From NCBI GenBank assembly GCA_028718635.1, contig JAQULK010000001.1, positions 88,626-152,625 on the forward strand: a stretch of DNA of 64,000 bases, written 5' to 3'. The notes under the pieces are model-generated. The model had not been told where the DNA came from, did no database searches, and worked only from the letters and a program-made list of their open reading frames with translations. The stretch comes from Minisyncoccota bacterium. Its GTDB lineage: Bacteria; Patescibacteriota; Minisyncoccia; Phycocordibacterales; UBA9973. This document shows, one piece after another, positions 13,312-62,895 of this stretch (position 1 is its first letter; every line of letters starts with the position of its first letter). A program made the position numbers and the translations under genes.

Positions 13312-14514
13312 ATGATGTTTTACAAACACTGCAAAAATTATACAGTCGAGAGCGTGACCTCCGGCCACCCGGATAAAATCTGTGATCAAATATCAGATGC
13401 TATTTTAGACGCTTATTTAAAGTTAGACCCGAAAAGCCGAGTGGCTATAGAAACCTTTGGCGGACATGGTCGCCTTGTTATTGGTGGAGAAGTAACATCC
13501 CTCGGGCATAGTCCTACGGGCGAGCCAAAAGGAAAAGTAAATTATGTGCAAATAGCGCGAGATGTTTATAAAAAGATTGGCTACACAGACAAGCTTGAAA
13601 TCTCTGCCAATATAGTCACTCAGTCTCCAGACATTGCTTTAGGAGTAGACACAGGCGGTGCTGGAGACCAAGGCATCATGTATGGATATGCCACTGATGA
13701 AACGCCTGAGTTTCTACCAAAAGGAATAGTGTTGGCGCACAAACTTGCAAAACAATTAGAAGAAATGAGAAAAAGTGGAAAAATAAAATGGCTCAGGCCC
13801 GATGGAAAAACGCAAGTCACTTATACCAATGGGAAATTAAATACTGTACTAGTTAGCACCCAACATTCTCCAAATATTAAACTGGAAGAAATAAAAAAGG
13901 AAATTACAAAAAAAGTGATATTACCCTTACTCTCCAAAGAAGAAAGAAAAAGGGCCTGTCCCGTTAGAGGCCACGAGGGCTCGCAGTGTGTCTCTGCCTC
14001 TAATGGGATAAAAATTTTAGTAAATCCAACGGGTAAATTTACTGCTGGCGGTTTCGAAGCGGACACCGGTCTAACTGGAAGAAAAATAATGATAGATACT
14101 TATGGCGGGCTCGTTCCGCACGGAGGCGGATGTTTCTCTGGGAAAGATGCCACCAAAGTAGACCGCTCTGGCGCTTATATGGCGCGTTTTGTCGCCAAAA
14201 ATCTCGTAGCAAACGGATACGGCAAAGAAGCCTTAGTGTCTGTCGCCTACGCTATCGGAATGGCAGAACCCTTGATGATAGAAGCCATAAATGAAAAAGG
14301 TGAAGATTTGTCAAAAGTAGTCCGAGAGCATTTTGATTTCAAACCGCTTGCCATAATAAAAAAACTTGGTCTTCAAAATCCTATTTATGAGCAAACCGCT
14401 ACCTATGGCCATTTCGGTAAAAAAAATCTCCCGTGGGAAAAGATTTGTCCCGTTAGAGGCCGCGAGGGCTCGCAGCGACCCTCTGCCTCTAACGGGATTG
14501 AAAAAACAAAATAA
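13312..14514 (+). CDS. metK: S-adenosylmethionine synthetase carrying two in-frame family A repeat insertions
   Basis: ESVTSGHPDKICDQISDAILDA, GGGCFSGKD and ATYGHFG motifs. Repeat copies 13959..14008 and 14447..14497 encode CPVRGHEGSQCVSASNG and CPVRGREGSQRPSASNGIEKTK. Confidence 0.85.
   Translation: MMFYKHCKNYTVESVTSGHPDKICDQISDAILDAYLKLDPKSRVAIETFGGHGRLVIGGEVTSLGHSPTGEPKGKVNYVQIARDVYKKIGYTDKLEISANIVTQSPDIALGVDTGGAGDQGIMYGYATDETPEFLPKGIVLAHKLAKQLEEMRKSGKIKWLRPDGKTQVTYTNGKLNTVLVSTQHSPNIKLEEIKKEITKKVILPLLSKEERKRACPVRGHEGSQCVSASNGIKILVNPTGKFTAGGFEADTGLTGRKIMIDTYGGLVPHGGGCFSGKDATKVDRSGAYMARFVAKNLVANGYGKEALVSVAYAIGMAEPLMIEAINEKGEDLSKVVREHFDFKPLAIIKKLGLQNPIYEQTATYGHFGKKNLPWEKICPVRGREGSQRPSASNGIEKTK
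13959..14008. repeat. family A palindromic element (CCCGTTAGAGGC...GCCTCTAATGGG) inside metK
   Basis: Inverted-repeat termini. Internal CACGAGGGCTCGCAG. In-frame within the coding region. Confidence 0.8.
14447..14497. repeat. family A palindromic element at the metK 3' end
   Basis: Near-identical to 62844..62895. Extends the metK C-terminus by about 22 codons. Confidence 0.8.
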
Positions 14515-21997: not shown

Positions 21998-22120
21998 ATC
22001 CCGTTAGAAGTCTCCTAGTTAAACAAAGTCACAAAGAGTGATATAATAAGTTTGTATTTTTTATAGTCGTTATTAATAAATTAACTAACGGAAATCTAAA
22101 GATTTCCTACTTCTAACGGG
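21998..22120. repeat. family A element (~120 bp, CCCGTTAGAAGTCTCC...TCCTACTTCTAACGGG)
   Basis: Fills exactly the gap between the xth stop and the ATG of the downstream gene. Confidence 0.75.
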
Positions 22121-22738
22121 ATGAAAGCAGCTAGATTAGAAACTCTTGCAGACGGCATTTTTGCCATCGTGATGACAATCTTGGTTTTTCAAATTAGGCC
22201 GCCGGTTTTGGTGGATCCTACGAATGCCAAAGAACTTGCCTTCGCGATAAAACACATGCTCCCGATTTTCCTTAGTTATCTTTTAAGTTTTTCTCTGCTT
22301 TTTTCTTATTGGCGGGCACATCATTTCTTTGTTTCAGTTTATGCGAAAAATATTGACGTCAATCTGACGAATCTTAATGCGATTTTTTTCTTATTCCTCG
22401 CGCTTATTCCTTTTTCCACTTCTCTGCTCGGAGAGTATAGCAACAATCAATTTTCAATAGTTATTTTTGGCATTCATACCGTCATTATGGGTTTTTGTCT
22501 TTTTGCCATTCGCAGTTATGTGTTTAACTCCGATCATATAAAAAATATCGATGTCAGCAGACAAGAAATACGCCGTGGTACTGTCCGAACCTTTGTGCCT
22601 GTGGTTTTCGGTTTATTGGCAATTGTTCTTTCTTTTTTCAACAATTATCTATCTCTCGTTCTCTTTACCCTCGCTGTGATTTTCAACTTTTCTCAAACAA
22701 GTACTGTCTTTATAGATAAATTTATCAAAAATCTATAG
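22121..22738 (+). CDS. DUF1211/TMEM175-like membrane protein
   Basis: RLETLADGIFAIVMTILVFQI matches the RxxxFSDGV motif, followed by further TM helices. Confidence 0.65.
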   Translation: MKAARLETLADGIFAIVMTILVFQIRPPVLVDPTNAKELAFAIKHMLPIFLSYLLSFSLLFSYWRAHHFFVSVYAKNIDVNLTNLNAIFFLFLALIPFSTSLLGEYSNNQFSIVIFGIHTVIMGFCLFAIRSYVFNSDHIKNIDVSRQEIRRGTVRTFVPVVFGLLAIVLSFFNNYLSLVLFTLAVIFNFSQTSTVFIDKFIKNL

Positions 22739-27608: not shown

Positions 27609-27679
27609 TGCGGCCAGAGAGAATCGGACTCTCGTCTCATCCTTGGCAAGGATGTGTTCTACCACTGAACCATGACCGC
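27609..27679 (-). tRNA. tRNA-Gly (GCC)
   Basis: Hand-folded cloverleaf GCGGTCA-TG-GTTC..GAAC-A-CATCC-TTGCCAA-GGATG-AGAC-GAGAG-TCCGATT-CTCTC-TGGCCGC-A. Confidence 0.75.
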
Positions 27680-27834
27680 TAATTATTTATGTATAAAGAC
27701 CACCGAATATGACTGCTAATTATTTTTTAATAATCTAATTATATATTATATACAATTTATTGCAATTTGGAATTTAGGCTTATAAAATAAAATGATTTTG
27801 ATTATTTTTTAAATGATGTATAATTATAATCACT

Positions 27835-27906
27835 GCACCCGTAGTGAAATGGATATCACAACAGTCTTCGGAACTGTCGTTGGGGGTTCGAGTCCCTCCG
27901 GGTGCA
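27835..27906 (+). tRNA. tRNA-Arg (TCG)
   Basis: Acceptor GCACCCG/CGGGTGC, D-stem GTGA/TCAC, anticodon stem ACAGT/ACTGT, loop CTTCGGA, T-arm GGGGG-TTCGAGT-CCCTC. Confidence 0.7.
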
Positions 27907-28166
27907 CAAGATTCTGCTTGTCCTTTATTTTTTTTCATAAAGGCTTGCTGTATAAAGATTTTATTAAAAATGTGGATAACTATGTGCGTACTGTTCATAA
28001 AGGACAGAGTTAGAAGTTGTCTCTTATTGCCATCTTTTTCACAATAATGCTTATAAAATAAGGATATTTTTATAAGAGACATAAATATTTCTCAGATTTT
28101 GTCTTTTCGTTTCACGTGAAACCACGTTAATCGTGAAACCTCATATTTTATTGTAAAATAAAGAAG

Positions 28167-28577
28167 ATGCCAAAAGTATTTACATCAATAACTCAAAAAA
28201 CTGGCGAAATTGGAGAAAACATAGCAGTAAGGTTTCTTGTGAAACATAATTTTTTAATATTAAATAGAAATTACACAAAAAAATGGGGAGAAATAGATAT
28301 CGTAGCTGAAAAAGCCAATAAATTATACTTTGTTGAAGTGAAATCTGTGTCAAGGTTCGACCTTGACAAGGTTACACATGAAACAATAGATCAATATCAT
28401 CCTGAGGACAATATGCACCCGTGGAAACTAAAACGTTTATCGCGAACAATTCAAACTTACCTTTTATCCGAAAAAATACCAGATGAAAAAGAATGGCAAG
28501 TGGATTTATTAATCGTGTTCCTTGATATAAAAAATAAAAAGGCAAAAATAAAAGTAGTCAATGATATTATTTTGTGA
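28167..28577 (+). CDS. YraN-family (UPF0102) endonuclease-like protein
   Basis: 136 aa. GEIGENIAVRFL...GEIDIVAE...YFVEVK pattern. Confidence 0.6.
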   Translation: MPKVFTSITQKTGEIGENIAVRFLVKHNFLILNRNYTKKWGEIDIVAEKANKLYFVEVKSVSRFDLDKVTHETIDQYHPEDNMHPWKLKRLSRTIQTYLLSEKIPDEKEWQVDLLIVFLDIKNKKAKIKVVNDIIL

Positions 28578-28633
28578 TATATTATTAAACGTTGAAGTTG
28601 AAACGGGCTTGCCCGCCGAAGCTTTAGCGAAGG

Positions 28634-28704
28634 CGGGCTGTAGTATACCGGTAGTACAAGTGGTTTGGGACCATTTAGACTGGGTTCGATTCCCAGCAGC
28701 CCGA
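28634..28704 (+). tRNA. tRNA-Pro (TGG)
   Basis: Acceptor CGGGCTG/CAGCCCG, anticodon stem AGTGG/CCATT, loop TTTGGGA, T-arm CTGGG-TTCGATT-CCCAG. Confidence 0.65.
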
Positions 28705-28824
28705 AGGGATGGAGTAAGCAAATTTATTTGCTTACGTTGGGAATTGAAAGGCTTTTCTATGTTGAATGAAATGAAACAGAAAAGCACCTGGCTATGTAAT
28801 AGCCGATCCCAGCAGCCCGACATT

Positions 28825-28895
28825 GCGGGATTAGTTTAGTGGTAGAATAAGAGTTTTCCAAACTCTGGGCAGGCGTTCGATTCGCCTATCCCGCA
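28825..28895 (+). tRNA. tRNA-Gly (TCC)
   Basis: Acceptor GCGGGAT/ATCCCGC, anticodon stem AGAGT/ACTCT, loop TTTCCAA, T-arm AGGCG-TTCGATT-CGCCT. Confidence 0.7.
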
Positions 28896-44978: not shown

Positions 44979-45258
44979 ATCCCGTTAGAGATCACTTATG
45001 TTTTATTACACATATATTTTAAAAAGTAAGAAGGACGGTAAAATTTACACTGGATATACGCAAGACCTACGGAAGCGCCTGAATCAGCATAATAAAGGTT
45101 TATCTACATATACGAAAGGACGAGGCCCATTTATTTTGATATACTATGAAGGGTGTCTATTAGAAAGTAAAGCGAAGTCGAGAGAATTATTTTTAAAATC
45201 GGGAATGGGCAAGCGTTATCTAAAAAATAGATTAGGCGCTTCCTATCTCTAACGGGAT
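44979..45258. mobile_element. GIY-YIG gene bounded by perfect 14-bp inverted repeats ATCCCGTTAGAGAT / ATCTCTAACGGGAT (family A archetype)
   Basis: The inverted repeats directly flank the 84-aa GIY-YIG ORF. Termini match the solo family A repeats. Confidence 0.7.
44998..45252 (+). CDS. small GIY-YIG nuclease-family protein
   Basis: YYTYILKSKKDGKIYTGYTQDLRKRLNQHN. Confidence 0.7.
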   Translation: MFYYTYILKSKKDGKIYTGYTQDLRKRLNQHNKGLSTYTKGRGPFILIYYEGCLLESKAKSRELFLKSGMGKRYLKNRLGASYL

Positions 45259-45721
45259 GCAATTCAAAGTTCCACAATTTTTAGACATTGAAGATAAAAT
45301 ATTCGGCCCTTTTACTTTTAGGGAATTTGTTTATTTAGCCGGCGGGGCAGGCTTGTGTTTTATTCTTTATAAATTGCTGGGTCTTATTTTAGGAATAATA
45401 CCCATTTTAGCTGTCGCGGGATTTTCGCTCGCTCTTACTTTTTACAAACCAAATAATAAACCATTTATTAATATAATAGAATCAGGTTTTAAGTATTTTA
45501 CCCAAAATAAACTTTATATTTGGAAGAAAAAAGCAAATAAAACCACCTCTTCCCCCGCCTTCTCCAAAGGAGAAGGAGCCCTCTCCTTCGGGGAGGGTTT
45601 GGGAGGGGTAAACAAAATTCAAATGATGCATCCAGGCAGTTCCCCGTTGAGTGGGAGCAAGTTACGAGACTTGGCTTGGAGTTTAGATGTGCTGGACTTG
45701 AGTAAGCAACAATCCCGTTAG
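45257..45721 (+). CDS. PrgI-family (VirB3-analogue) membrane protein
   Basis: MQFKVPQFLDIEDKIFGPFTFREFVYLAGGAG followed by two TM helices. Lies immediately upstream of VirB4. In-frame palindromic insertion near the C-terminus. Confidence 0.55.
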   Translation: MQFKVPQFLDIEDKIFGPFTFREFVYLAGGAGLCFILYKLLGLILGIIPILAVAGFSLALTFYKPNNKPFINIIESGFKYFTQNKLYIWKKKANKTTSSPAFSKGEGALSFGEGLGGVNKIQMMHPGSSPLSGSKLRDLAWSLDVLDLSKQQSR

Positions 45722-45833
45722 AAGCCGCGGTCGCAGTTTAAAAAATATAAATATGTTAAATAGAAAAATAAAAATTAATAGAATAACAAAGCATAATCAC
45801 GGTCTGTTGACCGCGACCTGCTTCTAACGGGAT
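45711..45833. repeat. family A element (GAAGC subtype)
   Basis: Left inverted repeat contains the TAG stop of the PrgI-like gene. Right inverted repeat ends ...TAACGGGATG, giving the ATG of the next ORF. Inverse-orientation copy at 61725..61805. Confidence 0.75.
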
Positions 45834-51832: not shown

Positions 51833-52357
51833 CTAAATTCCACCCACGTATTTGATCACCACTCGGCGATCGCGCCCGAAACCTATGGATTCGGTTTTAA
51901 GGTCATTTGATTCAGATAAAAATTCATGAACGATTCTGCGTTCGAAGGCTGACATTGGGTCAACTTCTATATTAGACTTAAAATATCTCGCTCTTTCAGA
52001 CATCATATGGGCTATTGCACGGATATTCTCAACATGTTTTTTTTGAAAACCGTTTATATCTATAATAACAGACCCTCCCCCAACCCCTCCCTTGGCAGGG
52101 AGGGGGGTCCCTTCTCCCCCTGCTAAGGGGGAGTGCCCGAAGGGCGGGGGGGTCTTAGCTTCTATTATTCTATGAACAAGGTGGCTTAACGCGTGCAAAC
52201 CCTCACCATCACGCCCAATAAAGAAATGTGGCTCGACAACCTCTATGGAAACCCATACATTTTTATGCCCATCATCAACTATTGAAATTCCATTTAGTTT
52301 TACTGTAGTTTTTTCAATTAAGTCTTTTATTAAATTTTGAATCTCTTCTTTTTCCAT
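51833..52357 (-). CDS. jag: Jag/KhpB (KH + R3H) RNA-binding protein
   Basis: R3H motif ERRIVHEFL. In-frame double-palindrome insertion encoding PPPFGHSPLAGGEGTPLPAKGGVGGGS. Confidence 0.8.
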   Translation of the reverse strand: MEKEEIQNLIKDLIEKTTVKLNGISIVDDGHKNVWVSIEVVEPHFFIGRDGEGLHALSHLVHRIIEAKTPPPFGHSPLAGGEGTPLPAKGGVGGGSVIIDINGFQKKHVENIRAIAHMMSERARYFKSNIEVDPMSAFERRIVHEFLSESNDLKTESIGFGRDRRVVIKYVGGI

Positions 52358-52477
52358 CCCGTTAGAAGCAGATCGCGATCAACTCGCGTATCTGCCATAT
52401 TAAGTTATTAATTTTATTAATATTTGATTTCATGTTTTGTTTGTTTTTAAATTGCGATCGCGGCTTCTAACGGGATC
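52356..52477. repeat. family A element (GAAGC subtype)
   Basis: Fills the yidC-jag spacer. One end supplies the jag ATG (CTAACGGGATG on the minus strand). The other ends 5 nt before the yidC stop. Confidence 0.75.
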
Positions 52478-53250: not shown

Positions 53251-53544
53251 TTACTTCACAGAATCAATGTGATTTTTTTGCCAAGGATGGCAACGCAGAA
53301 TGCGTTTCAACCCTAAATAAATTCCTTTCCATGCGCCATATTTTTCTATCGCTTGTTTGGTGTATTCAGAACAAGATGGATAAAAAACACAAGTGTTCGC
53401 TTTCAAAAAAATTGAAATGTTTTTTTGATAAAAATTAATCCCGTTAGAAGCCGCCCTCGCTAGTAAGCGAGTGCTACAGTCACCCTGGGGCGACTTGCTT
53501 CTAACGGGATTAATTAAGTTTTGAAAGAATTGTTTTAATTTCAT
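53251..53544 (-). CDS. yidD: membrane protein insertion efficiency factor YidD with in-frame family A repeat
   Basis: C.FYPSCSEY...RILRCHPW signature. N-terminal residues [24 protein letters not shown] are encoded by repeat 53438..53512. Confidence 0.7.
53438..53512. repeat. family A element inside the yidD 5' region
   Basis: CCCGTTAGAAGCCGCCCTCGC...GCGACTTGCTTCTAACGGGAT. Right end abuts the rnpA stop codon. Confidence 0.75.
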
Positions 53545-61067: not shown

Positions 61068-61216
61068 ATGTGGATAACCCCCACACCTTTCTTGATATCA
61101 CTTTTTATTCTTTAAATAAAACGTTAAGCAGGATAGTTTTTTAAGAGAAAATATTAATAAAATAATATTTTTACTGAAAAAGTAGAATAATATCAAGAAA
61201 GGTGTGGGGGATAACT
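61068..61216. repeat. solo family B element with 21-bp perfect inverted repeats CCCCCACACCTTTCTTGATAT
   Basis: Termini match the GIY-YIG element at 30919..31290. No ORF inside. Abuts the ruvC stop. Confidence 0.7.
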
Positions 61217-61724
61217 AAAACTTTATGTGTGCAAAGGCTGTCAGAGCTATAGCGATAGCATCCAATTCATCATCAGATGTTTTTATTTTATCTATATCCA
61301 CCAAAATTTTTACCATTTTTATTATTTGTTCTTTGTTGGCTTTTCCATAGCCAGTAGTGGCAATTTTTATTTGGGGAGGAGAAGCTTCAAATATTTTTAG
61401 TCCTGCACAGGAGGCTTCGTATATCACTACTCCGCGCGCTTCAGCGACCTTCATCACTGTCTTATGATTAGTATTTAAAAATAAAGTTTCAATAGCTAAA
61501 ATTTCTGGTTTGTATTTGCTAATTACTTTATTGACCTCTGTGCCTATTAAATGTAAACGCTCACTAAATTCTAATTTAGCCGGAGTCTTAAAACATTTGG
61601 AAAAAATTACTTTTTCCTTACCCTGAAGTCCCCGCCTGCCGGATGGGCAGGTTGCCTCAGTGGTTCGTTCTAGCACTGCTATTCCCAATCGCTCATATCC
61701 TGGATCTATCCCTAAAATCATCAT
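61215..61724 (-). CDS. ruvC: crossover junction endodeoxyribonuclease RuvC with in-frame palindromic insertion
   Basis: ILGIDPG...AIETLF...DELDAIAIALT. Extra segment TTEATCPSGRRGLQGKEK is encoded by palindrome CCTGCCGGATGGGCAGG. Confidence 0.8.
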   Translation of the reverse strand: MMILGIDPGYERLGIAVLERTTEATCPSGRRGLQGKEKVIFSKCFKTPAKLEFSERLHLIGTEVNKVISKYKPEILAIETLFLNTNHKTVMKVAEARGVVIYEASCAGLKIFEASPPQIKIATTGYGKANKEQIIKMVKILVDIDKIKTSDDELDAIAIALTAFAHIKF

Positions 61725-61805
61725 CCCGTTAGAAGCAGGTCGCGGTCAGACCGTGACTACTTAAATTAATATTATTAAAATTGCGACCGCGGCTTCTAAC
61801 GGGAA
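61725..61805. repeat. family A element (inverse copy of 45711..45833)
   Basis: Occupies exactly the 81 bp between the ruvB stop (TGA 61806..61808) and the ruvC ATG. Confidence 0.8.
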
Positions 61806-62843: not shown

Positions 62844-62895
62844 ATCCCGTTAGAGGCCGCGAGGGCTCGCAGCGACCCTCTGCCTCTAACGGGAT
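62844..62895. repeat. family A element (GAGGC subtype)
   Basis: Near-identical to 14447..14497. Lies 16 bp upstream of the ruvB ATG. Confidence 0.8.

Follow-up and report, generated by a model that had tools for sequence, protein, structure and literature searches.

The window analyzed here, a 64,000-nucleotide stretch of a contig from a Minisyncoccota bacterium of the candidate phyla radiation (CPR), harbors a metK gene (13312..14514, + strand) that codes for an S-adenosylmethionine synthetase of 400 aa when read from its first ATG. This assignment was supported by the match of MetK to solved S-adenosylmethionine synthetases (PDB, phmmer, E = 3e-98) and by the presence of all three Pfam SAM-synthetase domains (N, M and C, E = 1e-26 to 7e-54), the central one matching residues 116-243 and the C-terminal one beginning at residue 246. 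The reading frame was intact, and the columns invariant over 112 homologs were retained. No exact-protein match was found for the 400-aa MetK because the public gene call begins at the second ATG (NCBI start at 13315); the homolog search did recover P0001, an NCBI MAG protein from Candidatus Pacebacteria whose sole difference is this annotated start. Outside the inserts described below, metK presented a dN/dS of about 0.05 (0.04-0.07 vs homologs), indicating strong purifying selection, and therefore the working enzyme tolerates the inserts, as a previous sequence-only reading of this DNA had proposed for an essential enzyme.

Two direct repeats of 58 nt, 86% identical, were found in metK at 13957-14014 and 14446-14503, with their starts 489 nt apart. 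Each contains a 50-bp miniature element, made up of T, a 48-nt core and A: copy 1 (13959..14008, + strand) is placed in the linker before the strand KILVNPTG, and copy 2 (14448..14497, + strand) four codons 5′ of the metK stop. Both are inverted repeats, with 13-nt arms TCCCGTTAGAGGC / GCCTCTAAYGGGA around 24 nt, that is, 13-bp inverted ends TCCCGTTAGAGGC / GCCTCTAACGGGA and a GC-rich centre; the complementarity of the arms is complete (100%) in copy 2 and amounts to 92% in copy 1, and the corresponding DNA hairpins reached -19.4 kcal/mol (z = -5.8) and -11.8 kcal/mol (z = -3.3), respectively. The sequence-only reading, which described two in-frame repeats about 440 bp apart, was borne out, since 439 nt separate the elements and both share one stop-free reading frame, CPVRG[H/R]EGSQ...SASNG. 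The deletion between the copies that it suggested could occur in principle; the longest identical run between them has 16 nt, 163 codons of the catalytic half would be lost, and such a deletion is unsupported as a function. A third metK insert, of 27 nt (13501-13527), was also considered as a member of this repeat family or of a different one and discarded, as no second copy was found in the window or in 207 loci.

The comparison with relatives confirmed that both repeats had been inserted. Insert 1 was missing from 108 of the 112 aligned close MetK homologs and insert 2 from 109, and L003, a genome with the same gene order, presented clean gaps at both sites. The net gain per site was 18 codons (54 nt), one more than the 17 previously given, which fits a 50-bp element plus a 4-bp target duplication (48 + 2 + 4 = 54 bp). 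The unfilled site of copy 1, ..GTAAAAAT.., was found in L003, L205 and L206, and that of copy 2, AAATTGAGAAA, in L207. Filled sites were likewise recovered: the copy 1 fill was common to L002 and L207, the copy 1 site of L001 was filled with the interior reversed and an exact TAAA duplication, and L206 carried a fill at the copy 2 site with an exact TTGA duplication. Peptides similar to the inserts occurred in five other MetKs (P0002, P0005, P0015, P0003 and P0006), and in every case the underlying DNA was recognisable as a copy of this element, so that no such peptide was seen apart from the repeat family. MetK homologs unfilled at site 2 terminate in ...WEKIEKIS or ...WEKIKKI. Copy 2, which had been thought to replace the natural C-terminus, thus probably splits it, as an 18-codon insertion between WEKI and the terminal EKTK; alternatively, an exact 3-bp TTG duplication may have struck the original TGA stop.

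In metK, copy 1 is followed by the right target copy TAAA (14009-14012), and its left counterpart, CCTG (13955-13958), now differs; copy 2 is followed by TTGA (14498-14501) and preceded by TTTG (14444-14447). The lack of an intact target duplication in both cases (CCTG/TAAA and TTTG/TTGA), together with an unexplained TGT ahead of CCCG in both copies, counts against the transposon reading.

At the protein level, copy 1 fell within the last part of the Pfam central domain and not inside the C-terminal domain, where it had been placed before. In the AlphaFold2 (AF2) model, both metK inserts are low-confidence loops, with pLDDT < 50 at P0001 residues 217-229 for copy 1 and at residues 384-399 for copy 2. 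Judging from the reading frame, the mature MetK would carry both insert peptides. The peptide of insert 1 was weakly constrained (dN/dS 0.2-0.65) and its synonymous sites were unusually conserved (dS 0.23-0.65 vs 1.9-3.5 for the rest of metK), and thus the conserved entity within insert 1 is the DNA, not the peptide. Moreover, two neighbouring stem pairs of insert 1 were altered in a compensatory fashion in L002. The nucleotide divergence of the insert follows that of the metK gene.

These copies belong to a family of elements bounded by terminal inverted repeats (TIRs) of the form (T/C)CCCGTTAGA...TCTAACGGG(A/G), with nine members in the window, among which the short and mid-size forms measure 50-123 bp and are non-coding. 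A 29-mer from the metK repeat was found at three window sites vs 0 in 100 shuffles, and a 12-mer arm at 18 sites vs 1.8 expected. When the whole window was scanned against Rfam at gathering thresholds, four tRNAs only were returned, and the repeats matched no family. The sister of copy 2 is intergenic (62845..62894, + strand) and presents an exact TTGA duplication on both sides; its 48-nt core (62846-62893) is identical to that of copy 2 and to L010 1665-1712. Another intergenic member, GC-rich and 71 bp long (53439..53509, no strand assigned), has a 69-nt core, also a multiple of three, an exact TTAA duplication and a hairpin of -24.6 kcal/mol (z = -7.7). Mid-size copies were found at gene starts, one of them including TATAAT. 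The start codon of a TMEM175-family gene, for example, is the insertion site of a 123-bp member with an AT-rich interior (21999..22121, + strand), which is flanked by an exact TGAA duplication; the orthologous site of L003 is unfilled, and the right subterminal sequence of this member, TTCCTAYYTCTAACGGG, is also present in the GIY-YIG unit described below. Two minus-strand genes likewise carry a family member on their start codon: gene 51833-52357 a mid-size one of 119 bp (52357..52475, - strand), flanked by an exact TCCA duplication, and gene 61215-61724 one of 81 bp (61724..61804, - strand), for which the exact duplication is ATCA. A 120-bp member placed between two genes (45713..45832, + strand) has an orthologous copy in L010; the upstream gene now terminates at a TAG within its left repeat, and the downstream ATG comes directly after the element.

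The family was further characterized in a sample of 267 non-redundant elements from 2.0 Mb of Patescibacteria DNA, which was picked by the nuclease or by a short pattern and is therefore biased. An exact 4-bp direct repeat flanked 147 of the 263 testable elements, with about 0.4% expected by chance, and the duplications followed the consensus TNNA (the first base being T in 89% and the fourth A in 87%), being mostly non-palindromic (TGAA 34, TTTA 25, TTCA 16). In the window, five of the nine copies had exact 4-bp duplications and a sixth had one of 5 bp. The exact duplications in the sample therefore indicate that the family transposes. Short elements were also observed on ten viral contigs, and a search of viral contigs for a full-length GIY-YIG unit returned none.

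The length of the short elements was strongly biased. Their cores were multiples of three in 100 of 154 cases (binomial p = 1e-15, related copies being counted separately), and, of the 36 located within long open frames in addition to those in metK, 34 were multiples of three and stop-free in the host frame. On each strand, the element ends place a stop (TAG/TAA) in a single one of the three frames, which, combined with the 54-bp gain, means that a coding insertion extends the protein (x-PVRG...SNG-x) and does not break it. The proposal that the element had been selected to be translatable was thus upheld with regard to length, and failed with regard to stop-codon avoidance: multiple-of-three elements outside genes presented 2.32 open frames of 4, vs 2.15 expected from shuffles of their GC-rich interior, so that a strong claim of selected avoidance was rejected and stop-codon freedom is mostly an effect of composition. 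Divisibility by three is what lets the short derivatives survive inside genes. Full-length units adjoined an ORF start in 56 of 69 cases and mid-size units in 25 of 32, compared with 22 of 132 for the short elements.

The only full-length member in the window has 278 bp (44980..45257, + strand), with ends TCCCGTTAGAGAT...ATCTCTAACGGGA, and carries an 84-aa GIY-YIG ORF (44998-45252) whose TAA stop falls within the right repeat. Its insertion site is the start codon (ATG at 45257) with which a PrgI-family gene begins, and TGCAA is duplicated on both sides. The 84-aa protein matched Pfam GIY-YIG over residues 3-69 (E = 8.8e-18), with no second domain; its nearest solved relatives were the UPF0213 proteins BH0048 (E = 2.7e-9) and EF2693, and no NCBIfam model matched it at its cut-off. 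More than 1100 homologs at 80-100% identity were found, and the gene evolves under purifying selection (dN/dS 0.11 at dS 0.8). The same ends surrounded about 78 of 80 GIY-YIG homolog loci in other genomes, again with the stop codon within the right end, and single MAGs carried several nuclease-bearing copies on different contigs and before different genes. In the 2.0 Mb sample, all adjacent end pairs were < 300 nt apart and the sole ORF between them was GIY-YIG; no larger parent, of a size up to several kb, that combines these ends with a conventional transposase was found in this biased sample, which makes for a weak negative.

Several known systems resemble this family in part. The metK repeats recall the bacterial MITEs (Correia/NEMIS, ERIC, Nezha; PMC10969869), which occur as many short non-coding copies with TIRs and target duplication, apparently originate by internal deletion of a longer coding element and occasionally form in-frame fusions (PMC10969869). 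The metK repeats are indeed small, non-coding, multi-copy and variably present at orthologous sites (unfilled in L003, L205, L206 and L207), and they have TIRs; their fixed-length duplication is found family-wide and is not intact in the metK copies themselves. However, known MITEs derive from insertion sequences with DDE or similar transposases, whereas the only coding relative here is the 278-bp GIY-YIG unit, and the strong bias of the short forms to lengths divisible by three also sets them apart. Rickettsia palindromic elements (RPE; Ogata et al. 2000, 2002), of about 100-150 bp, are found in-frame in housekeeping genes, and a review that summarises them reports no associated enzyme (PMC10969869). 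The likeness lies in palindromic DNA inserted in-frame in unrelated protein genes of a small-genome bacterium, with a tolerated peptide and copies also between genes; the metK elements differ in their 50-bp size, 13-bp TIRs, TNNA duplication, Patescibacteria host and GIY-YIG-bearing relative, and by size and host the comparison is an analogy only.

A closer parallel on the side of the enzyme is the Ssn system, in which the gene of a small GIY-YIG nuclease is flanked by hairpin repeats that the nuclease binds (Chenal et al. 2025, PMC11893778); its authors remarked on the likeness of the repeat-flanked gene to an insertion sequence (PMC11893778). Both systems combine a single-domain GIY-YIG protein of < 100 aa (84 aa here) with flanking hairpin inverted repeats dispersed in the genome, and both repeat types start with TCCCG and finish with CGGGA, a lead taken from the published consensus and not a test. 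Nevertheless, the NTS repeats are rarely inside genes (2%), with no target duplication or start-codon insertion reported (PMC11893778), and the nuclease described here has UPF0213 proteins as its nearest solved relatives. The SRM motif HGTCWYN(0-2)YYVSBRHN(0-5)WNVSBRGN(0-2)RNCYNB had 0 matches on both window strands (shuffles 0.3), and the classification of the repeats as Ssn-family SRMs was rejected. The REP/BIME repeats linked to RAYTs (IS200/IS605-like Y1) are also genome-wide hairpins associated with a small repeat-flanked nuclease gene, but RAYTs belong to the HUH/Y1 enzymes, and REPs, by definition, lie outside genes; to our knowledge, IS200/IS605-type movement leaves no target duplication. 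Free-standing GIY-YIG homing endonucleases (phage T4 Seg, I-TevI) share the catalytic domain and the condition of selfish genes between host genes. Homing enzymes have extra DNA-binding domains and rely on repair-mediated copying at one cognate site, and we know of none with TIRs or target duplications. In the literature covered, which is incomplete and allows no claim of priority, no GIY-YIG transposon, no link of such an enzyme to MITEs and no palindromic in-frame elements in Patescibacteria were found.

Taken together, these observations make it highly probable that the metK repeats are miniature non-coding, in-frame copies of a TIR transposable-element family. As to the enzyme, sequence comparison leads us to lean slightly toward the GIY-YIG nuclease as the one that mobilises the elements. 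A fuller proposal, advanced tentatively and falling a little short of an even chance, is that the 278-bp unit is an autonomous DNA transposon with a GIY-YIG transposase, TNNA duplications, start-codon insertion and expression borrowed from the host, whose derivatives evolved lengths divisible by three and so colonised the coding sequences that make up most of these genomes, including those of essential enzymes such as MetK. Cutting activity would probably be supplied in trans by this unit, the only coding member of the family, and the hairpin-forming ends would probably be the recognition site of the nuclease, as in the Ssn/NTS pairs. Where a full-length unit lands on a host start codon, the duplication would recreate an ATG 4 nt past the nuclease stop, and by its sequence the host gene behind it could still be translated from there. 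In metK, copy 1 landed on TAAA, in a variable linker that is disordered in the AlphaFold2 model, before the split from two other lineages; copy 2, much younger, landed at or next to TTGA. Purifying selection subsequently retained only harmless insertions such as these. Against a role of the nuclease as transposase, no GIY-YIG enzyme is known, from experiment or otherwise, to perform transposition, so that this one would be a first, and a 278-bp autonomous unit would undercut by far every insertion sequence described that we know of.

The main alternative, which we regard as unlikely though worth serious weight, attributes the movement of the elements to a conventional transposase encoded elsewhere, such as a DDE enzyme with 4-bp duplication; the GIY-YIG gene would then be cargo or serve a different purpose, for instance the restriction of single-stranded DNA that has been proposed for SsnA of Neisseria. 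TIRs with a fixed-length duplication are the classical DDE signature, 4-bp duplications are also typical of DDE transposases, and the GIY-YIG enzymes we know of are nucleases, not strand-transferases. A DDE enzyme acting in trans could go unseen in a sample selected by nuclease or pattern, and what was demonstrated for SsnA is a modulation of transformation, not transposition (PMC11893778). Nevertheless, GIY-YIG is the sole ORF between the closely spaced end pairs throughout the 2.0 Mb, these ends are present at nearly all of the homolog loci mentioned above, the stop codon and last residues of the nuclease are built into the right end, and the mid-size elements carry the subterminal sequence of the nuclease unit, as deletion derivatives would.

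It is improbable that the repeats are mainly host-functional hairpins (Ssn-type sites for recombination or transformation, transcript punctuation or promoters) and that the metK copies are incidental and kept for a DNA or RNA role. The low dS of insert 1 and the compensatory stem changes in L002 would be in line with such a role, as would the strong hairpins and the mid-size copies exactly at gene starts, including the one with TATAAT. However, conversion from other copies could also depress dS, while target duplications, presence/absence differences and multi-copy nuclease units all speak of spread by insertion, and L003, with the same gene order, has no family elements in 21 kb. A hairpin role of this kind does not exclude the transposable-element explanation and is compatible with it. 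Far less probable is an intron- or intein-like removal of the 54-nt segments after transcription or translation, leaving the mature MetK unaltered: each segment is a strong self-contained hairpin, and Patescibacteria are known for unusual insertions in rRNA genes, but no Rfam family was matched, a self-splicing intron would need more than 48-50 nt, and the 34 of 36 intragenic copies that are stop-free multiples of three are predicted by selection on translation and would be needless if the segments were excised. Finally, the reading of the segments as native lineage-specific MetK loops or as an assembly artefact has a negligible likelihood, because it is this TIR element, once with its interior reversed, that encodes the similar peptides of a few other MetKs, copy 2 has an identical intergenic counterpart 48 kb away, and the filled alleles come from independent assemblies and samples.

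In-frame protein-coding palindromes have so far been mainly a matter of Rickettsia, their spread never tied to an enzyme, and are now extended to Patescibacteria, where this transposable-element family adds clear transposition footprints and one candidate enzyme, a very small GIY-YIG nuclease. The question raised by the Ssn system, whether repeat-flanked nuclease genes are insertion sequences, thereby gains a directly testable system. For annotation, 18-residue PVR...SNG or PLE...LTG segments in these proteomes should be taken as parasitic DNA, not as functional motifs. Should the nuclease prove to be what moves the elements, a new class of minimal transposon would be established, a compact nuclease with sequence specificity and a recognition hairpin of its own would become available, and many short insertions in Patescibacteria proteins that so far lack an explanation, along with miscalled gene starts, would be accounted for.

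The metK gene (13312-14514, forward strand), coding for S-adenosylmethionine synthetase, was matched over its full length by solved MetK structures (E = 3e-98), contained all three MetK domains of Pfam, and its product was identical, apart from the annotated start, to a protein of a Candidatus Pacebacteria MAG (672-kb contig). Two direct repeats of 58 nt with 86% identity were found within this gene (13957-14014 and 14446-14503; 489 nt from start to start), each itself inverted, with 13-nt arms TCCCGTTAGAGGC / GCCTCTAAYGGGA and 24 nt between them. A 29-mer derived from the repeat was present at three sites in the window and at none in 100 shuffles. Both copies were in the same reading frame and free of stops, and the two in-frame repeats described by the sequence-only reading were confirmed. 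The alignment of 112 close MetK homologs (78-89% identity; typical length 354 aa) revealed the first 50-bp element (insert 1, 13959-14008) in four of them and the second (insert 2, 14448-14497) in three. Moreover, a locus from another genome (L003) with the gene order of the window, ComM, DksA/TraR, metK, a hypothetical gene and PNPase, carried an unfilled metK, leaving clean DNA alignment gaps at sites 1 and 2; both segments are thus insertions. The adjacent PNPase gene was called as two ORFs in L004 (5275-7458) and as one in the near-identical L003 (11951-14134), a split that could stem from a frameshift, insertion or misassembly.

At either metK site the insertion measured 18 codons (54 nt), that is, a 48-nt core plus 2 nt and a 4-bp duplication. 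Site 1 was unfilled in L205 and L206 (..ACAGTAAAAATT..) and site 2 in L207 (..AAAATTGAGAAA..), while L001 carried a site-1 fill with reversed element interior and a perfect TAAA duplication, and L206 a site-2 fill with a perfect duplication of TTGA. In the window, the left flanks of both copies mismatched the right ones, and a TGT codon was common to both. The site-1 fills of the window, L002 and L207 shared the odd left junction GCCTGT and an identical G·T wobble in the stem, and therefore represent one ancestral insertion. The nucleotide identity of insert 1 (83% and 75%) paralleled that of the remaining metK sequence (78% and 73%), which indicates that it is old. Copy 2, in turn, is young, since the same 48 nt recurred without mismatch between genes at 62846-62893 and within a long ORF of another MAG (L010).

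Outside the insert, metK presented dN/dS of 0.04-0.07 relative to five relatives, with dS saturated at 1.1-3.5, and the enzyme is under normal constraint. Insert 1 showed dN/dS of 0.2-0.65 with dS of just 0.23-0.65, several-fold under the remainder of metK, and in L002 two neighbouring stem pairs had changed from GC to AT on both arms. Strong single-stranded DNA hairpins were predicted, copy 1 folding at –11.8 kcal/mol (z = –3.3) and copy 2 at –19.4 kcal/mol (z = –5.8). It is suggested, not firmly, that the 20 codons of insert 1 are constrained as a DNA hairpin or converted from other copies, the peptide not being the constrained part. Insert 1 fell within residues 116-243, matched by the Pfam central domain, in a linker that joins a helix to the strand KILVNPTG and is already variable in length across solved MetKs; insert 2, if taken as 18 added codons, separates WEKI from the final four residues. 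In an AlphaFold2 model (112 sequences; mean pLDDT 75), both inserts had pLDDT below 50 and the neighbouring elements were confident, which fits predicted disordered loops.

Other irregularities were observed in MetK. A third insertion of 27 nt (9 aa, LGHSPTGEP; 13501-13527) in the N-terminal domain was common to 5 of the 112 homologs and missing from L001-L004; it forms a weak palindrome terminating in CCTACGGG, similar to the right end of the element family, and neither the window nor 207 loci contained a second copy. In the public gene calls of five homologs (P0004, P0018, P0026, P0042 and P0064; alignment columns 1-79), long unrelated N-terminal extensions led directly into MFYKH, probably miscalled starts that read across further insertions immediately 5' of the genuine ATG.

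Nine elements bounded by CCCGTTAGARGY...RCYTCTAACGGG were found in the window, with 50, 50, 50, 71, 81, 119, 120, 123 and 278 bp; a four-tRNA cluster (27609-28895, Rfam) was unrelated to the metK elements. The sample was extended with 80 loci around homologs of the one protein encoded by the family and 120 metagenomic segments that matched the short form; adding the window and the metK loci gave 2.0 Mb with 267 non-redundant elements. With element bounds set as one base (T/C), CCCG...CGGG and one base (A/G), an exact 4-bp direct flank repeat was present in 147 of 263 elements, against about 0.4% by chance. These repeats were mostly non-palindromic (TGAA 34, TTTA 25, TTCA 16, TAAA 14, TGGA 13), with T as the first base in 89% and A as the fourth in 87%; they are target-site duplications, and the family therefore transposes. 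In the window, five of the nine copies had an exact 4-bp duplication and a sixth had one of 5 bp. The orthologous site of the 123-bp element (21999-22121) was unfilled in L003 (16970-17070). This element, placed ahead of a TMEM175-family gene, has an AT-rich interior with TATAAT, a possible outward promoter, and the duplicated upstream ATG starts a 15-codon ORF running into it. The right subterminal sequence TTCCTAYYTCTAACGGG was common to mid-size elements and the full-length unit, and the 48-nt core resembled a fusion of the two mid-size end modules; both features fit derivation of the short and mid-size elements by internal deletion. Short members occurred on ten predicted viral contigs (L208-L217), and no full-length unit was found among 2.9 million viral contigs.

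The full-length element (278 bp, 44980-45257) carries an 84-codon ORF (44998-45252) in which GIY-YIG was the only domain (E = 8.8e-18). More than 1100 proteins shared 80-100% identity with this nuclease, nearly all of 84 aa and several per MAG. The ORF was flanked by TCCCGTTAGAGAT...ATCTCTAACGGGA in about 78 of 80 loci, with its TAA stop within the right end, and it was under purifying selection (median dN/dS 0.11 at dS 0.8). Since no adjacent ends lay more than 300 nt apart across the whole sample, it was the only protein seen between such ends. This nuclease is inferred to be the most likely mobilising enzyme of the family. A 65%-identical homolog (L083, 8221-8457) lay between other, mutually complementary ends, CCCGAACGAACC...GGTTCGTACGGG, a hint of covariation between nuclease and ends. 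GIY-YIG units bounded by the family ends were also found on contigs assigned to Woesearchaeota, Clostridia, Desulfobacteraceae, Scalinduaceae and Omnitrophica (L054, L067, L076, L077, L080), which could reflect horizontal spread or mis-binning. In tandem arrangements (L033 near 10252; L054/L055), the right end of the unit was followed by ATGAA or GTGAA and the left end of the next member.

Of 69 full-length units, 56 adjoined the start codon of an ORF with 60 or more codons (55 in nuclease orientation), as did 25 of 32 mid-size and 22 of 132 short elements, a placement that may reflect either targeting or survivorship. Because the left flank of these units duplicates the ATG together with one to three further bases, the host ATG lies 4 nt past the nuclease stop after insertion. 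The unit would borrow the expression signals of the host gene, whose translation may be resumed by termination and re-initiation. Downstream of the unit in the window, a PrgI-family gene (ORF 45257-45721) ends (...QSR*, 45713-45721) at a TAG supplied by the left terminus of the following element, and therefore has family members on both its start and stop codons.

The length of the short form accounts for its persistence within genes: the core was divisible by three in 100 of 154 short elements (binomial p = 1e-15, related copies counted as independent), including 34 of the 36 within long open frames, whose frames read PVR...SNG (22) or PLE...LTG (12); the third frame of each strand was shut by TAG/TAA in the ends. 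The bias extended to the 118 elements without in-gene placement (66; p = 6e-7), and therefore either holds family-wide or many of these are truly intragenic. Outside genes, 2.32 open frames were observed against 2.15 expected, a stop-freedom that is close to the prediction from the GC-rich interior. The proposal that the element is selected to be translatable is thus supported by element length, with no clear support from codon content.

Palindromic elements in-frame in housekeeping genes are the hallmark of the Rickettsia palindromic elements (RPEs; PMC10969869), to which the metK elements are analogous. The family shares the architecture of the Ssn/NTS pairs, a small GIY-YIG gene between hairpin repeats dispersed over the genome; the study of that system demonstrated site-specific cutting of single-stranded DNA, pointed out a resemblance to insertion sequences, and listed Rickettsia and Wolbachia among genomes rich in repeats (PMC11893778). 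NTS are rare within genes and target duplications are unmentioned there (PMC11893778), whereas the present family has both in-gene copies and target duplications. Ssn membership was not adopted, as the family repeats did not match the published SRM motif and the nearest solved relatives of the nuclease were UPF0213 proteins. The literature searched, whose coverage was incomplete, described neither a GIY-YIG transposon nor such elements in Patescibacteria. The metK finding is a genuine instance, analogous to RPEs, of selfish DNA presumably translated within an essential enzyme, and the wider family is a variant of MITEs, RPEs and Ssn-associated repeats for which the evidence of transposition is unusually clear.
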